DNA of 64,000 nucleotides from an uncultured Methanosarcinales archaeon (GCA_964637115.1 CAZWVL010000006.1:23696-87695); one strand, 5' to 3'; positions 58,860-64,000 are shown, numbered from the stretch's first letter. Made by a program: numbers and translations. Notes: generated from the sequence alone by a model not told the origin.

Positions 58860-60392
58860 TTAATAAAATTTCGGTTCGCTGAATGACTTAACATCCAACG
58901 TGTGAAAAGGAATCAGGCGTTTATTGTCCAAATCAAGATTACAAAAAGCAATTTTAGGATAATCATCCTCGACCCGGAAATACTTCACAGCAACGGTTGA
59001 ATCATCATTGGAAAGAACCATATCAGAAATAGATTTAAAGTCACCCGGAACACCAAGATCATACTCCTTTCCGGTTTCAATTTCATTTATGAAAGCGCCT
59101 CTGTCGTCGCCCCAGCGTAAATGGACAACATACCGGCCATCGTGCGTAAAGAATTGAAATCCGCTCCGATAATGAGTTATTTGAGATACGTAGTCCCTCT
59201 TTTCCATTGAAAATATTGCACCATTATTTAACAGACAAAAGCGCGAGTCGGCACTAAACCAGGATTTTCTGTATGGCTCCGAATATCCTATTCCTTCAAA
59301 GAAGGGCAACAGCTCATTTTTATTCGTAATTTCAAAAATGCGTATGCGTCCATAGTTATCTCTCGTGCCTTCACTGCATCTATCATTAATTATCGATACA
59401 TGACTATCTGGCTCACCACCGGACAAGTCACAAACAACATACCTATTATTCGGGCTTATTGAAACATTGTGAATGTAAACTCCTTTGGGAAAGAATTCTT
59501 GCAAATGGATCTTGCCAGAATAGTGGTCAAGTAAAGTCAAACAAGCATCCCTTTCAATTGGCTGCTGAGCCACTGCAACGCAACGGCCATCTGGAGAAAA
59601 ACTGAAAGCCGACACTGTTCCAAGAGTCGAAAGATTATTTACAAATACCTTACTGCCCTTGTTGAGGCCAACCACTTCAACCAATGGACCTCTGCCCGTT
59701 CTTCGCTTGCATACCAGCAGACGATCCCTTCGTTGACTTAAGCAAAGATTGTAGGGCATAGCAAACCACTTAAACATCTCAGGATCTATAACCCGCTTTA
59801 TTCTTTTAGTTTCGCCATGATTAAGCTCCCATTGAATTAAGCTGCCAAGATCGTTTATCATATAGACGGTTCCATTTTTCCCGTCGTACCCAAAAATCTC
59901 AACTTTCTTTATGTTTTTTGTCCCAATGATGTGATTTACGGAATAACCAAACTCAAGATTATGCAAATTACTGTAATCAAATGATACATTTCTGACAAAT
60001 GCCCCCCGCAAATTCAATCCCTCAAGATTACAATCACTCAAATCAGCACCGAAGATATTTGTTCCAGAAAAATCCTTGTGATGAAACTCTTCACCAAGCA
60101 GTTTTAATAAAGTTAGGCAGTTGCCGCCCAAGTAAACCGACTCTCGTACCTTCATATTACGCGTAGAAAAAATCAAGTCATAAAGAATATTTTTTGGCGG
60201 ATTCATTTGGGCAACAAGCTCCAAAAGGTTCCTTGATATCCCTCCTGATAGTTCCCCTGCATTTCTTTCTGCAATGCACTGGAAAAGGTATCTGGCAGTC
60301 AAAAATTCTTGAAAGGAAGGATGGGTAAACTCGAAGGAACCACTGCCACATAAAATAGGGTCAACCTCCTTCAAAACATCATCAAGAGTCAT
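58860..60392 (-). CDS. NTPase-less NACHT C-terminal module: FxHPSFQE cap, pentapeptide repeat, WD40/beta-propeller
   Basis: MTLDDVLKEVDPIL...FTHPSFQEFLTARYL, GGNCLTLL...DFSGTNIFGADLSDCNLEGLNLRGA, several FSPDG/ISPNN/FSADS blades. True start 60392 (ATGA overlap). Confidence 0.75.
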   Translation of the reverse strand: MTLDDVLKEVDPILCGSGSFEFTHPSFQEFLTARYLFQCIAERNAGELSGGISRNLLELVAQMNPPKNILYDLIFSTRNMKVRESVYLGGNCLTLLKLLGEEFHHKDFSGTNIFGADLSDCNLEGLNLRGAFVRNVSFDYSNLHNLEFGYSVNHIIGTKNIKKVEIFGYDGKNGTVYMINDLGSLIQWELNHGETKRIKRVIDPEMFKWFAMPYNLCLSQRRDRLLVCKRRTGRGPLVEVVGLNKGSKVFVNNLSTLGTVSAFSFSPDGRCVAVAQQPIERDACLTLLDHYSGKIHLQEFFPKGVYIHNVSISPNNRYVVCDLSGGEPDSHVSIINDRCSEGTRDNYGRIRIFEITNKNELLPFFEGIGYSEPYRKSWFSADSRFCLLNNGAIFSMEKRDYVSQITHYRSGFQFFTHDGRYVVHLRWGDDRGAFINEIETGKEYDLGVPGDFKSISDMVLSNDDSTVAVKYFRVEDDYPKIAFCNLDLDNKRLIPFHTLDVKSFSEPKFY

Positions 60393-61573
60393 TTTGGCTT
60401 GTACACCCAAGAATCGCAGAATTGAACACCTTTTGCCTCCAAATGGCAATACAAATCGATATCATGAAGGTCAGCCATTTTTGCGGTTAAGTTTTTAAGA
60501 CGGTCATGATAAATTTCTGTGAACTCCCCATCTTTGGTTTTTAAGAATTTCTCATTAAATTGTCGCATCAACGCTGGCTTAAAATCGTATCTTCTCAAAA
60601 TTTCAAATACCGCTTCAAAATAGTTGAAATATTCCTCCGACAAGGGCTTAGCGCCCACATGCGGAAAAAGCTCCGAGCCACTCATCCAATTGAGCACTGT
60701 GTCTAGGCAATGTGCATCGCCAAATTTACCTATAAACCACATATCGTCTTGATTGATGAGTGAAGGAGCTTCCGGAACATAGGCTGGAATTGTTGTACCA
60801 TCTTCTGACATAGTACGAAGACACGTCTTTGCGATGCTCTCTGACTTCCCAAGATTATCACGCTGATCATCTTCACATTGCTGCTCAAACATATCACTAA
60901 AGTTGAAAAAAGAGTATCCAAACTCGTCCTCATCATTGCTAGAATTATCCGAAGTGTCCTCACCATGTAAACTCTCCTCACAGAACTTTAAATATGCCGC
61001 TAGATTTTCAGCGACATAGGCACTCCTCGTTTGAATCAAGGCGGATGCGGCTTTATCAACACGAAGATGAAATCGTAGGGGTGGGTCGTATTTGTCCTTG
61101 TGGGCTTTAATGAGAGACATTAGAAAATCTATAACGTTGTAGGCGGGTTTTTGTGTCGCATCCAGATCCTGATGCAGGCCTATACACTTGGCACAAAGTA
61201 AAAAATCTTCCAGAATGCGGTCAAAATATGCACCCTTTGCATAAAAATCAAGGTCTTTTTTGTATTTAAGGGAACATTCACTGATAACTTCTAAAAATTC
61301 TTGAGCACCATTCTTAGACAGCATGCCACAAAGGCAATTCAACACCGATGTCCAATCAGACGACACTATTCTGAACTCCGTCGACAATCTTTCGCTTAGC
61401 GTAGGCTCCCTTCTGCTCCAGAATTCAAGATATGCGTCCCTTACAGATAGTTTTCCTGAATTAATCTCGTCTGCAAACTGCTTTGCCGTCAAAACTTCAC
61501 GAAAAGACGGATGTGCAAACTGAGAAGAAGCCAGTATCGGCCCAACTTCCCTCAAAACAGCATCAAGAGTCAT
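60389..61573 (-). CDS. FxHPSF-cap helical paralog (array member)
   Basis: MTLDAVLREVGPIL...FAHPSFREVLTAKQFADEINSG and C-terminal LYCHLEAKGVQFCDSWVYKPK. Confidence 0.75.
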   Translation of the reverse strand: MTLDAVLREVGPILASSQFAHPSFREVLTAKQFADEINSGKLSVRDAYLEFWSRREPTLSERLSTEFRIVSSDWTSVLNCLCGMLSKNGAQEFLEVISECSLKYKKDLDFYAKGAYFDRILEDFLLCAKCIGLHQDLDATQKPAYNVIDFLMSLIKAHKDKYDPPLRFHLRVDKAASALIQTRSAYVAENLAAYLKFCEESLHGEDTSDNSSNDEDEFGYSFFNFSDMFEQQCEDDQRDNLGKSESIAKTCLRTMSEDGTTIPAYVPEAPSLINQDDMWFIGKFGDAHCLDTVLNWMSGSELFPHVGAKPLSEEYFNYFEAVFEILRRYDFKPALMRQFNEKFLKTKDGEFTEIYHDRLKNLTAKMADLHDIDLYCHLEAKGVQFCDSWVYKPK

Positions 61574-62721: not shown

Positions 62722-63899
62722 TTTGGCTTGTACACCTCGGAATCCAAAAATTGCGTACCTTTCTTTTCAAGATGCTGATACAAATCAATATTGTTATCTC
62801 TAAGAATCTCATCAGCAAAATCTCTCAAACCATCACTGTAAAAAGATCTAAGCTTACTATCACTCACCTTTGAAATTCCATCATTTAACTTCCTAATCAT
62901 ATCTGGATCAAAATCATGTCTTCTAATAACATTGAAAATACTGGGGAAATAGTAATCTTTGCCGCGACTAAACCAAAACGGCAATAAACCAATCAAACCT
63001 TCCAGACATTTTAGCCCTCCTAAACTTCCCACTAAGTCAAACACATACTTGCAATCTCTGCCATGTCTACCTGTACATTCCTGAAAATGATTTACAAGGA
63101 TCTCTTCACTAACCTTAACACCACTCAGTGCGAGCTTTTTAACAGCACAGAGCACATCGTGTTCCAATACGTTTTCCTGAAAATAATAACGTAATCCCTC
63201 AACAATCATCTCCCTTCTCCCATCTACATAAGCTATAAGCTTTTGGAGAACATAACTGCTTTTCGTTTGGGCTAATGCGTCCAATGCCCTTACTGCCTGC
63301 AATTCAATAGGCTGCCATGTTTCAGGAGTCCACAGATCTGGTTCATCAATGAAATTTTTAACTGCACATAATAAAGTATCAAGAATCTGCTTTGAGTATC
63401 TTTTGGGCATAACTGAAGTCGGATGCGCCCCAATGAATTTTGCACATAATATCATATCATCAACAACCGCAGAATATTGACGTATTTGAAAGTCATCAGC
63501 CAAATAACATAATGCATCTTCTTTGCGAATTGTTGCGCCTTTACCAATTCTTTTTGCATGAAACTCGCCAACACCATCAACGAATTCCTTTGCCCTGTCT
63601 TCGTTCAGCATTTCTGCCATACAAGTCAGAACGAGTTTCCACTCATTCTTTATATGAGCCGGATCAAATTCAATCGCATGAGGAAGATCGTCACGATAGC
63701 CGCTGCCTTCCTGAGCAGCCATCATGTCCTCATGAGGATCATAAAACCAAAAAGTATAAGCAGCACGCTTAACGCCCAAACGCCCAGAATTAATCTCATC
63801 TGCAAACTGTCTTGCGGCCAGAATTTCCTGAAAAGAAGGATGAGTAAAGCTGCCGTTCATAATCGGCTCAGCCTCCCTCAAAACAGCATCAAGAGTCAT
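62718..63899 (-). CDS. FxHPSF-cap helical paralog (array member)
   Basis: MTLDAVLREAEPIM..FTHPSFQEILAARQFADEINSG and C-terminal LYQHLEKKGTQFLDSEVYKPK. Confidence 0.75.
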   Translation of the reverse strand: MTLDAVLREAEPIMNGSFTHPSFQEILAARQFADEINSGRLGVKRAAYTFWFYDPHEDMMAAQEGSGYRDDLPHAIEFDPAHIKNEWKLVLTCMAEMLNEDRAKEFVDGVGEFHAKRIGKGATIRKEDALCYLADDFQIRQYSAVVDDMILCAKFIGAHPTSVMPKRYSKQILDTLLCAVKNFIDEPDLWTPETWQPIELQAVRALDALAQTKSSYVLQKLIAYVDGRREMIVEGLRYYFQENVLEHDVLCAVKKLALSGVKVSEEILVNHFQECTGRHGRDCKYVFDLVGSLGGLKCLEGLIGLLPFWFSRGKDYYFPSIFNVIRRHDFDPDMIRKLNDGISKVSDSKLRSFYSDGLRDFADEILRDNNIDLYQHLEKKGTQFLDSEVYKPK

Positions 63900-64000
63900 T
63901 TCGGCTTATACACCTCTGAATCCAAGAACTGAATGCCTTTTGATTCCAAATAATCATACAGATCTTTCCCGAAAAGTGGTTTAAAGAATTTTGCAAAAGA
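63896..64000 (-). CDS. C-terminal end of a fifth array member, truncated by window edge
   Basis: Manual translation SFAKFFKPLFGKDLYDYLESKGIQFLDSEVYKPK*. Confidence 0.8.
   Translation of the reverse strand, partial: SFAKFFKPLFGKDLYDYLESKGIQFLDSEVYKPK

Follow-up and report, generated by a model that had tools for sequence, protein, structure and literature searches.

A NACHT-type NTPase truncated within its winged-helix domain and a downstream array of candidate sensor cassettes in a genome-reduced DPANN archaeon

How could a receptor gene of the NLR kind function when it carries no nucleotide-binding domain of its own? Receptors of the NLR (nucleotide-binding, leucine-rich repeat) and STAND (signal transduction ATPase with numerous domains) type are normally made as one chain, in which detection and nucleotide switching are physically coupled. 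The question is raised by an array of co-oriented genes at positions 58860-64000, (-) strand, of a 64,000-nucleotide stretch of archaeal DNA (GCA_964637115.1, CAZWVL010000006.1:23696-87695; hereafter the window), which ends at the end of a contig that we call C6. The metagenome-assembled source genome (G000; 1.27 Mb in 27 contigs) is that of a tiny, genome-reduced DPANN archaeon of the Woesearchaeota type. A preliminary description of the window had taken these genes for NACHT sensor halves devoid of a nucleoside triphosphatase (NTPase) domain, set in a diversifying array that is shuffled by recombination at a conserved junction. Here we report that an NTPase gene on another contig of the same genome is cut where these cassettes begin, and that in a relative the two halves form a single protein. 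The reading that we consider probable is that one NACHT chassis forms pairs in trans with sensor subunits that can replace one another, with defence as its likely role. The comparison covered a congener (G400), a contig of a metagenome-assembled genome (MAG) from NCBI (L024), a further MAG (L025), two JGI contigs (L031 and L033) and, from farther away within the order, the genomes G207 (which bears the label Candidatus Woesearchaeota) and G321.

The array within the window consists of four complete open reading frames (ORFs) and a fifth which is cut by the contig end (Table 1), and at all four junctions the stop codon overlaps the next start (ATGA, within AAATGA), as had been described. The junctions share a 20-nt core, GGTGTAYAAGCCRAAATGAC, which is present in four copies without mismatches at a spacing of 1148-1181 nt, none being expected by chance as estimated from 100 shuffles. 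The end motifs noted previously were read again in the ORFs of the window: all starts follow the N-cap consensus MT(S)LDxVL(R/K)ExxPI...F(T/A)HPSF(Q/R)E, four genes end with the tail LYxHLExKGxQFxDSxVYKPK, and the F(T/A/S)HPSF(Q/R)E motif is present in every cassette of the genus. None of the cassettes of the source genome has a Walker A motif or a P-loop match in Pfam, in agreement with the preliminary description. Amino acid identity between cassettes is 66-70% in the cap, 57-66% in the tail and 27-28% in the body. The bodies had been described as strongly diverged, and at this level of identity they are, but they are still related, since they can be aligned from one end to the other and make up a single family of mostly alpha-helical paralogues, and only the terminal cassette T differs in body type, with pentapeptide repeats (PF00805, residues 116-146, 26.8 bits against a cut-off of 20.2) and a WD40-like part. 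The beta-propeller matches of T are weak, and atlas features which link it to WD40 clusters (0.92-0.94) are a lead only. In G400 and L024, too, the array closes with a T-type cassette. With the exception of the Pentapeptide match in T, Pfam and PADLOC gave no significant family for the cassettes. An AlphaFold2 (AF2) model of cassette c alone is mostly alpha-helical (predicted local distance difference test, pLDDT, 77.8; predicted template modelling score 0.70), with best matches to designed ARM proteins and importin-alpha in Foldseek (best E 5e-3) and a best VIA Z of 10.9, short of the value of about 13 that is recommended for helical repeats; the longer cassettes of G207, G321 and L033 carry precomputed HEAT_2 matches.

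A whole-genome search placed the sole other cassette copies at the end of a second contig, C5, and the NACHT gene that was looked for upstream of the array was found there, directly in front of it. The first cassette starts (MAIESALKEVEPILQGRNFTQFTHPSFQE) 2 nt past the end of the NTPase ORF. The NTPase ends in the middle of its winged-helix domain (WHD), and the rest of this domain, including the FxHPSFxE motif, is supplied by each cassette; with this complementary truncation, and with the fused orthologue described below, the earlier view of the cassettes as NTPase-less NACHT sensor halves stands. Walker A (GNFGQGKS) is invariant in ten NTPase homologues, as are D520, A521, D523 and E524 of Walker B (alignment A2, the same ten). 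Pfam matches at E <= 0.01 were obtained among these homologues for NPHP3_N in nine and for NACHT in six (best E 3.4e-5 and 1.1e-5, respectively). The Walker B sequence DALDE fits the D[GAS]hDE signature, by which NACHT proteins are separated from other STANDs (bioRxiv 10.1101/2022.07.19.500537). Elsewhere in the source genome the NACHT profile matched only short ORFs or P-loop stretches that stay below threshold, and the cap-type His motif was not found beyond this locus. The N-terminal part of the NTPase is His-phosphatase-like: His_Phos_1 (PF00300) matches seven of the ten homologues (best E 1.7e-9), and H82, the nucleophile His, and R149 are conserved in all ten without exception. Two other residues of the catalytic set are replaced or mostly lost (see below), which makes its effector activity uncertain, and the domain would be an unusual candidate for an NLR effector.

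The contig ends of C5 and C6 are the two halves of one locus, as shown by the synteny of G400, L024 and L025. The partial cassette on C5 is 92% identical to the start of the type-A cassette of the relatives and the partial cassette on C6 shares 85% identity with residues 340-373 of G400 cassette 1, which is of type A; the two probably belong to a single gene, of which about 820 nt are missing from the assembly. As the cut pieces match the two ends of type A, the array would comprise the NTPase and at least six cassettes (two on C5 and five on C6, with the two cut ones counted as one). In G400 the whole locus lies on one contig: FtsZ and three small genes precede a 759-residue NTPase, which is followed by four cassettes (three of alpha type and one with pentapeptide repeats and propeller), the AbrB-type gene in convergent orientation and PGK. 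The same arrangement is met on single contigs of L024, where the cassettes number seven, and of L025, where NTPase and cassette are fused. G207, G321, L031 and L033 show the same NTPase followed by two to at least six cap-bearing genes, many of them encoding long HEAT-repeat proteins.

Table 1. Features of the split locus in the source genome and its relatives (aa, amino acids; coordinates refer to the window unless a contig or locus is named).
Feature	Location	Strand	Remarks
Cut cassette (type A), 3' end	63896..64000	(-)	last 33 codons; stops at contig end; tail ...DLYDYLESKGIQFLDSEVYKPK
Cassette b	62718..63899	(-)	393 aa; N-cap, probable alpha-solenoid body, VYKPK tail
Cassette c	61570..62721	(-)	383 aa; the modelled cassette
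Cassette d	60389..61573	(-)	394 aa from its ATG
Terminal cassette T	58860..60392	(-)	510 aa; same N-cap, pentapeptide repeats, probable WD40-like beta-propeller; without VYKPK tail
Junction core 1	63895..63914	(-)	GGTGTATAAGCCGAAATGAC; with stop/start overlap
Junction core 2	62717..62736	(-)	
Junction core 3	61569..61588	(-)	
Junction core 4	60388..60407	(-)	
Sites of the invariant tail GGTG	60399-60407, 61580-61588, 62728-62736, 63906-63914	(-)	
NTPase ORF	C5:91812-94001		729 aa; Walker A GNFGQGKS, Walker B IIDALDE; C-terminus ...WTISGYLSKKG
N-terminal His-phosphatase-like domain	C5:91812-93000		about 400 aa
Type-A cassette, 5' end	C5:95158-95359		first 67 codons; after C5 cassette 1, at contig end
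AbrB/MazE-type N-terminal domain protein	57912..58859	(+)	315 aa; convergent on array end
AbrB-type gene, locus L020	L020 12898-13845		
AbrB-type gene, locus L024	L024 12586-13533		
AbrB-type gene, locus L025	L025 4091-5038		
AbrB-type gene, locus L022	L022 3250-4188		
AbrB-type gene, locus L023	L023 9297-10229		
AbrB-type gene, locus L033	L033 2902-3834		
Small paralogous genes between FtsZ and NTPase	L010 11277-11756; L020 4273-5747; L024 658-2186		one to three genes, 159-184 aa
HEAT-type cassette of L033	L033 10897-13359		starts at MLTAKQFADELNSG

In L025 the two halves are joined in P0012, a single protein of 1082 amino acids in which the linker RKAKSSESNSVG connects the NTPase to cap, body and tail, and the AbrB-type gene follows directly; the reduced set A6 was used for its alignment, sets with all NTPases and all cassettes having misplaced one group. 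The existence of this fused orthologue shows that the cassettes are the C-terminal half of one NLR-like protein. In nine of the ten NTPase homologues the chain stops at one and the same alignment column, P0012 alone being fused, so that in these nine the nucleotide-binding domain (NBD), WHD and sensor are not on one polypeptide. Given at least nine independent assemblies, the split is unlikely to be an assembly artefact and is the rule, not an error. A search at the level of the order returned 10 of 401 genomes, in 10 genera (one of the genomes, G452, is unpublished), and in every case the frame that holds the match is open over 646-812 aa; scans of metagenomes and genome collections with the NTPase profile gave five loci in all. 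When 1.84 billion representatives were searched with the cassette profile, 243 proteins matched. The cap is N-terminal in 103 of the 109 cap-bearing representatives and internal in only four long proteins; among these are canonical NACHT proteins, in which Walker A precedes the His motif by 282-319 residues. Summed over the split pair the same distance is about 320 residues, like that in fused NACHT proteins.

Structural comparison of the fused segment P0012:360-830, as modelled with AF2 (mean pLDDT 66), extended the likeness to NLRs across the split. The top 29 VIA matches of this model are all NACHT NLRs, with NAIP5 and NLRC4 among the top. Model residues 1-471 align with NLRC4 (4kxf, chain 131-543) at Z 13.6 and a root-mean-square deviation (rmsd) of 6.4 over 338 residues; the corresponding figures are Z 11.6-13.0, rmsd 5.4-6.5 and 325-353 residues for NLRP3 (chain about 165-620), and Z 12.1-12.6, rmsd 6.2-6.7 and 338-350 residues for NOD2 (chain about 229-702). 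Matches to ORC and clamp-loader AAA+ proteins reach only to about model residue 260, short of the split, and the NLR matches cross it, which means that a likeness specific to NLRs runs into the cap and the helices that follow. The structural similarity of the cap to NACHT proteins, as proposed in the preliminary description, was therefore found; its placement just after the WHD was not, since in the model the cap corresponds to the second half of the WHD and the start of helical domain 2 (HD2). Neither Foldseek nor VIA gave an NLR match with the cassette alone, only generic solenoids; NLR matches appeared once the NBD was attached. By sequence (phmmer, region P0012:360-830) no meaningful match was found in the PDB. 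Taken with the Walker B signature, this model supports the assignment of the composite of the C5 NTPase and a cassette to the NACHT clade of STAND proteins. A model of the complex between NTPase residues 395-729 and cassette c scored 0.73 in three runs (0.72-0.73), with 0.00 for the best of three controls; the mark used is one that 58 of 80 solved complexes attain, as do two of 110 mismatched pairs. At least 78% of contacts agree between the runs, the pLDDT of the partners is at least 78, and the modelled interface is formed by NTPase residues 687-729 and 634-653 with cassette residues 2-55 and 70-81. This model supports, and does not show, binding between NTPase and cassette; its pass may reflect family likeness, because the split gene comes from a family with solved structures.

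The signals at the junctions suggest that all of these genes are made as separate proteins. At the boundary between the NTPase and cassette 1 the stops are TGA or TAA, the offsets range from -11 to +5 nt and the frame relations are 0, 1 and 2 across seven loci; a Shine-Dalgarno (SD) sequence of the GGTGA type lies at -9 to -12 before cassette 1 in four of the seven, and the genome-wide peak of GGTG in the source genome is at -9/-10. The variability of stops, offsets and frames, together with the SD in four of seven loci, argues for separate translation of NTPase and cassette 1, with no programmed recoding. At the other end of the cassettes, the valine of the tail (xVYKPK) is always encoded by GTG and the residue before it (E, W, M, G, R or K) always by a codon ending in G (15 of 15 tails). 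The resulting invariant GGTG sits at -15 from the next ATG and looks like a constraint at the nucleotide level. A plain SD role was considered for it and is not established, its position being -15 against the genome peak of -9/-10. Where residues are identical, the same codon is used in 64% of cases in the caps and in 45% in the bodies. The ratio of nonsynonymous to synonymous substitution rates (dN/dS) is 0.15-0.50 in all cassette pairs tested, which identifies the cassettes as working genes under purifying selection.

How does such an array change? The gradient of conservation is steep: FtsZ is 97% identical between G000 and G400 and the AbrB-type protein 97% between G000 and L024 (77% with G400), the NTPase is 66% identical with L024 and 45% with G400, and the terminal cassette 58% and 36%, respectively. 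The relatives carry 1 (fused), 2, 4, at least 6 or 7 cassettes, which differ in order and content between conserved flanks; array content does differ among relatives, as the idea of a shuffling array implied, and the locus is a hypervariable island between conserved genes. A maximum-likelihood tree showed cassette types common to several genomes at different positions, with positions 1 and 2 of G400 corresponding to positions 2 and 1 of L024; further pairs are cassette b of G000 with the fifth of L024, cassette d of G000 with the first of L031 and, within one genome, the first cassette on C5 with cassette c. Divergence is not uniform along the genes, again as anticipated: the nearest neighbour by cap is not the nearest by body in 14 of 15 cassettes. 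Cassette b of G000 and the fifth of L024 are orthologous (79% aa identity, body nt distance 0.10) and their caps are not; the body of cassette d is nearest to that of L031 cassette 1 (44% aa identity) and its cap to that of G400 cassette 2; and C5 cassette 1 and cassette c, which are only 49% identical in amino acids, yet have an exact 63-nt tract in common in their caps. In the pair of cassette b and the fifth of L024, and in that of G400 cassette 1 and L024 cassette 2, the proportion of synonymous differences is 0.22-0.26 in the body, 0.63-0.81 in the cap and 0.45-0.67 in the tail. The synonymous distance (dS) of cassette A between G400 and L024 is 0.39, while the flank of G000 and G400 is saturated at about 3, and the NTPase has a dS of 0.97 against 0.29 for the flank (G000/L024). 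These different histories of caps, tails and bodies, and the mismatches in dS, indicate recombination in the conserved ends and exchange of cassettes and NTPase alleles between lineages. Concerted evolution of caps within a genome was considered and rejected (73% nt identity within and 71% between genomes); only local cases of cap homogenization were seen, such as cassettes 3-5 of L024. A recombinase was looked for: no recombinase or reverse transcriptase family is recorded within 10 kb of the system in L024, L025 or L031, and none was found in G000, where there is also no RVT_1 match that would point to a diversity-generating retroelement.

In seven loci the AbrB-type gene (310-315 aa, of AbrB-PhoU type) adjoins the system: in six of them it converges on the end of the array, and in L033 (27% identity, E 3e-28) it lies upstream in divergent orientation; Pfam MazE_antitoxin matches the protein of the window at E 2e-4, below the cut-off. 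The gene marks the right-hand edge, itself conserved, of the variable island, and it could be a regulator of the system or a case of conserved synteny only. The small paralogous genes between FtsZ and the NTPase have no Pfam match; between G400 and L024 they are 70-76% identical in nucleotides compared with 96% for FtsZ, and they may belong to the island. The HEAT-type cassette of L033 listed in Table 1 lacks the first part of the cap, as a result of a truncated or mis-called start or of a degraded cap. No Rfam family was found in the window; positions 36000-44000 have a GC content of 0.45-0.48 as compared to about 0.40 elsewhere and, given no Rfam family, are not an rRNA operon.

The mechanism which we favour, action in trans on a separate NTPase, was one of the modes put forward in the preliminary description. 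The chassis would consist of the His-phosphatase-fold domain, the P-loop NBD, helical domain 1 (HD1) and the first helices of the WHD only, and would be followed by at least six co-transcribed and translationally coupled cassette genes. Each cassette would bring the missing helix and the wing of the WHD, the FxHPSFxE His motif and an HD2-like helix, and then its own sensor body, for the most part a divergent HEAT/ARM-like solenoid and in the last one pentapeptide repeats and a WD40-like propeller. As the complex model suggests, a sensor may dock on the chassis by completing its WHD, giving heterodimeric receptors of differing specificity in which the cassette supplies the His that contacts ADP. 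By analogy with single-chain NLRs, a ligand bound by one of the sensors would release the ADP-locked state, and this release would lead to oligomerization and trigger the N-terminal effector; the likely role would be defence against viruses or other invaders. The repertoire would change by duplication, loss and reordering of cassettes and by exchange between lineages through homologous recombination in cap and tail. A more far-reaching form of the same idea, which we hold tentatively and at somewhat less than even chances, is that of a combinatorial innate receptor: a chassis without its own ADP-latching His would be completed non-covalently by any sensor of the library, and the cap and tail would serve both as docking module and as the DNA homology arms by which bodies are traded between arrays and species.

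Several observations weigh against this reading. The pLDDT of the fused model falls below 50 at model residues 326-357 and 387-420, exactly at the junction, and the HEAT/ARM-like matches of the cassette alone are at the background of helical repeats (Z about 10-11). The G000 NTPase itself is below the Pfam cut-offs, with 16.5 bits against 26.7 for NACHT, 23.5 against 24.8 for NPHP3_N and 19.1 against 21.7 for His_Phos_1. In the phosphatase-like domain the Arg of the RHG motif is replaced by Gly or Ala ([GA]HG) in all ten homologues, and the second catalytic His is kept in four of the ten and absent in G000. With regard to defence, no PADLOC-DB family matched the NTPase or three cassettes at E <= 1, and the evidence for this role consists only of family analogy, patchy distribution and hypervariability. 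All of the genomes compared are metagenome-assembled. The flanks of L024 are mixed, the left (1-649) being 96% identical in nucleotides to G400 and 83% to G000 and the right (12588-13622) G000-like; this could be real recombination or a chimeric contig joined in the repeat array, and it weakens inferences from gene order.

The same split, multi-sensor design might serve a purpose that is not antiviral, that is, a signalling or regulatory STAND of the MalT/AfsR kind which responds, in a DPANN cell living as an episymbiont, to metabolites or to cues from a host or symbiont; the phosphatase-like domain and the AbrB-type regulator next to the system might be the means. The lack of a defence-model match, an N-terminal His-phosphatase-like fold which is not a classical death effector, and the linkage of the AbrB-type gene in seven loci and two arrangements would all fit this idea. 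We nevertheless consider it unlikely, as the NTPase is 45-66% identical where the flanks are 77-97% identical, cassettes have been exchanged between lineages, and a system present in 10 of 401 genomes of the order shows a pattern typical of conflict genes and not of housekeeping regulators.

A guard or decoy arrangement, in which the cassettes would be competing negative regulators that hold the truncated NTPase off until an invader sequesters a cassette protein or causes its loss and so frees the NTPase, would agree with the position of the ADP-locking His on the cassette, which leaves the NTPase alone without a latch, and with a predicted interface in the WHD. The fused orthologue and the canonical NACHT relatives place the body in the ordinary C-terminal position of a sensor, however, and we consider the arrangement improbable.

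Even less can be said for the cassettes as a donor store from which switching at the DNA level, as in pilE/pilS or vlsE, brings another cassette to the NTPase or fuses it there, so that the first position alone would be functional. The conservation of caps and tails at the nucleotide level (see the codon usage above), the mosaic caps, assembly breaks inside the array in two genomes and the fused single-cassette form of one relative could all be taken in its favour. However, each cassette begins with an ATG of its own that is coupled to the stop before it, its frame is open and its dN/dS is 0.15-0.5, the copies are co-oriented, so that recombination can only delete or duplicate, and no recombinase or reverse transcriptase family was met in the neighbourhoods named above or in G000; the probability of a donor store is in our view very small. 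Of the modes that the preliminary description had offered next to action in trans, neither decoy nor donor cassette is thus favoured, given the own starts, open frames and dN/dS values of the cassettes, and given that no second full NACHT gene and no cap motif were found elsewhere in the genome. Ribosomal frameshifting or read-through at the junctions, giving a fused NTPase-cassette or poly-cassette protein, is scarcely credible, for although in G400 and L031 the NTPase and first cassette are in frame with only a stop codon between them and AAATGA is invariant between cassettes, the boundaries vary in frame, stop and offset as described, an SD precedes cassette 1 in four of seven, and there is no slippery heptamer.

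The pairing of one chassis with several sensors has partial parallels in known systems. As in bNACHT and Avs proteins, the composite has an NBD with D[GAS]hDE, HD1, a WHD with the FxHxxFQE His and a presumed C-terminal repeat sensor, a putative enzymatic domain takes the N-terminal place of the effector, and the system is patchy and fast-evolving; unlike in those proteins, the chain is cut in the WHD, the sensor half is present as 2-7 alternative genes behind one NTPase, there is no PADLOC match and the N-terminal domain is His-phosphatase-like. In NAIP-NLRC4, too, several paralogous sensors of differing specificity feed one signalling NTPase, and in the mouse the NAIP paralogues lie in a tandem gene cluster; the NAIPs, however, are complete NLRs with their own NTPase that nucleate the polymerization of NLRC4, whereas here sensors without an NTPase would complete the WHD of the chassis. 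Plant NRC sensor/helper networks (cf. PMC10156107) resemble the present locus in having many fast-evolving sensors with few conserved helpers and in keeping detection and execution apart, but both plant partners are full NLRs at separate loci, with neither an intradomain split nor an operon array. The multi-hsdS loci of Type I restriction systems and shufflons likewise place alternative specificity subunits side by side next to one core, with conserved ends for reassortment; those systems use inverted repeats, usually have a dedicated recombinase and switch within a clone, whereas the repeats here are direct, all cassettes are ORFs of the expressed type and no recombinase is near. The donor copies of pilE/pilS and vlsE lack a start or expression signals of their own and there is one expression site, whereas each cassette has a coupled ATG. 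In full-text searches of the literature on split NLR, STAND or NACHT proteins and on STAND systems of DPANN archaea we found no description of this arrangement. A 2026 Nature survey of STAND proteins (PMC13581612) mentions split proteins only in its methods, as handled, and a 2020 eLife survey of NTP-dependent conflict systems reports variable components on separate genes in other system types and not in this one.

If one NACHT chassis does pair in trans with interchangeable sensors, the latch of a NACHT protein can be supplied in trans, and the locus would offer a minimal model for the sensor/helper logic known from NAIP-NLRC4 and plant NRC networks; its modular design would also suggest itself for engineered receptors. 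The mosaic of caps and bodies also lends itself to direct tests of cassette exchange through homologous recombination. Little is known about immunity in DPANN archaea. The locus occupies some 10 kb in a genome of 1.27 Mb and is among the fastest-evolving spots between conserved genes; its size and rate of change make it a candidate for a major conflict locus in DPANN archaea, and would, if the pairing is real, point to a plug-in sensor repertoire held at the level of the population in genome-reduced archaea.

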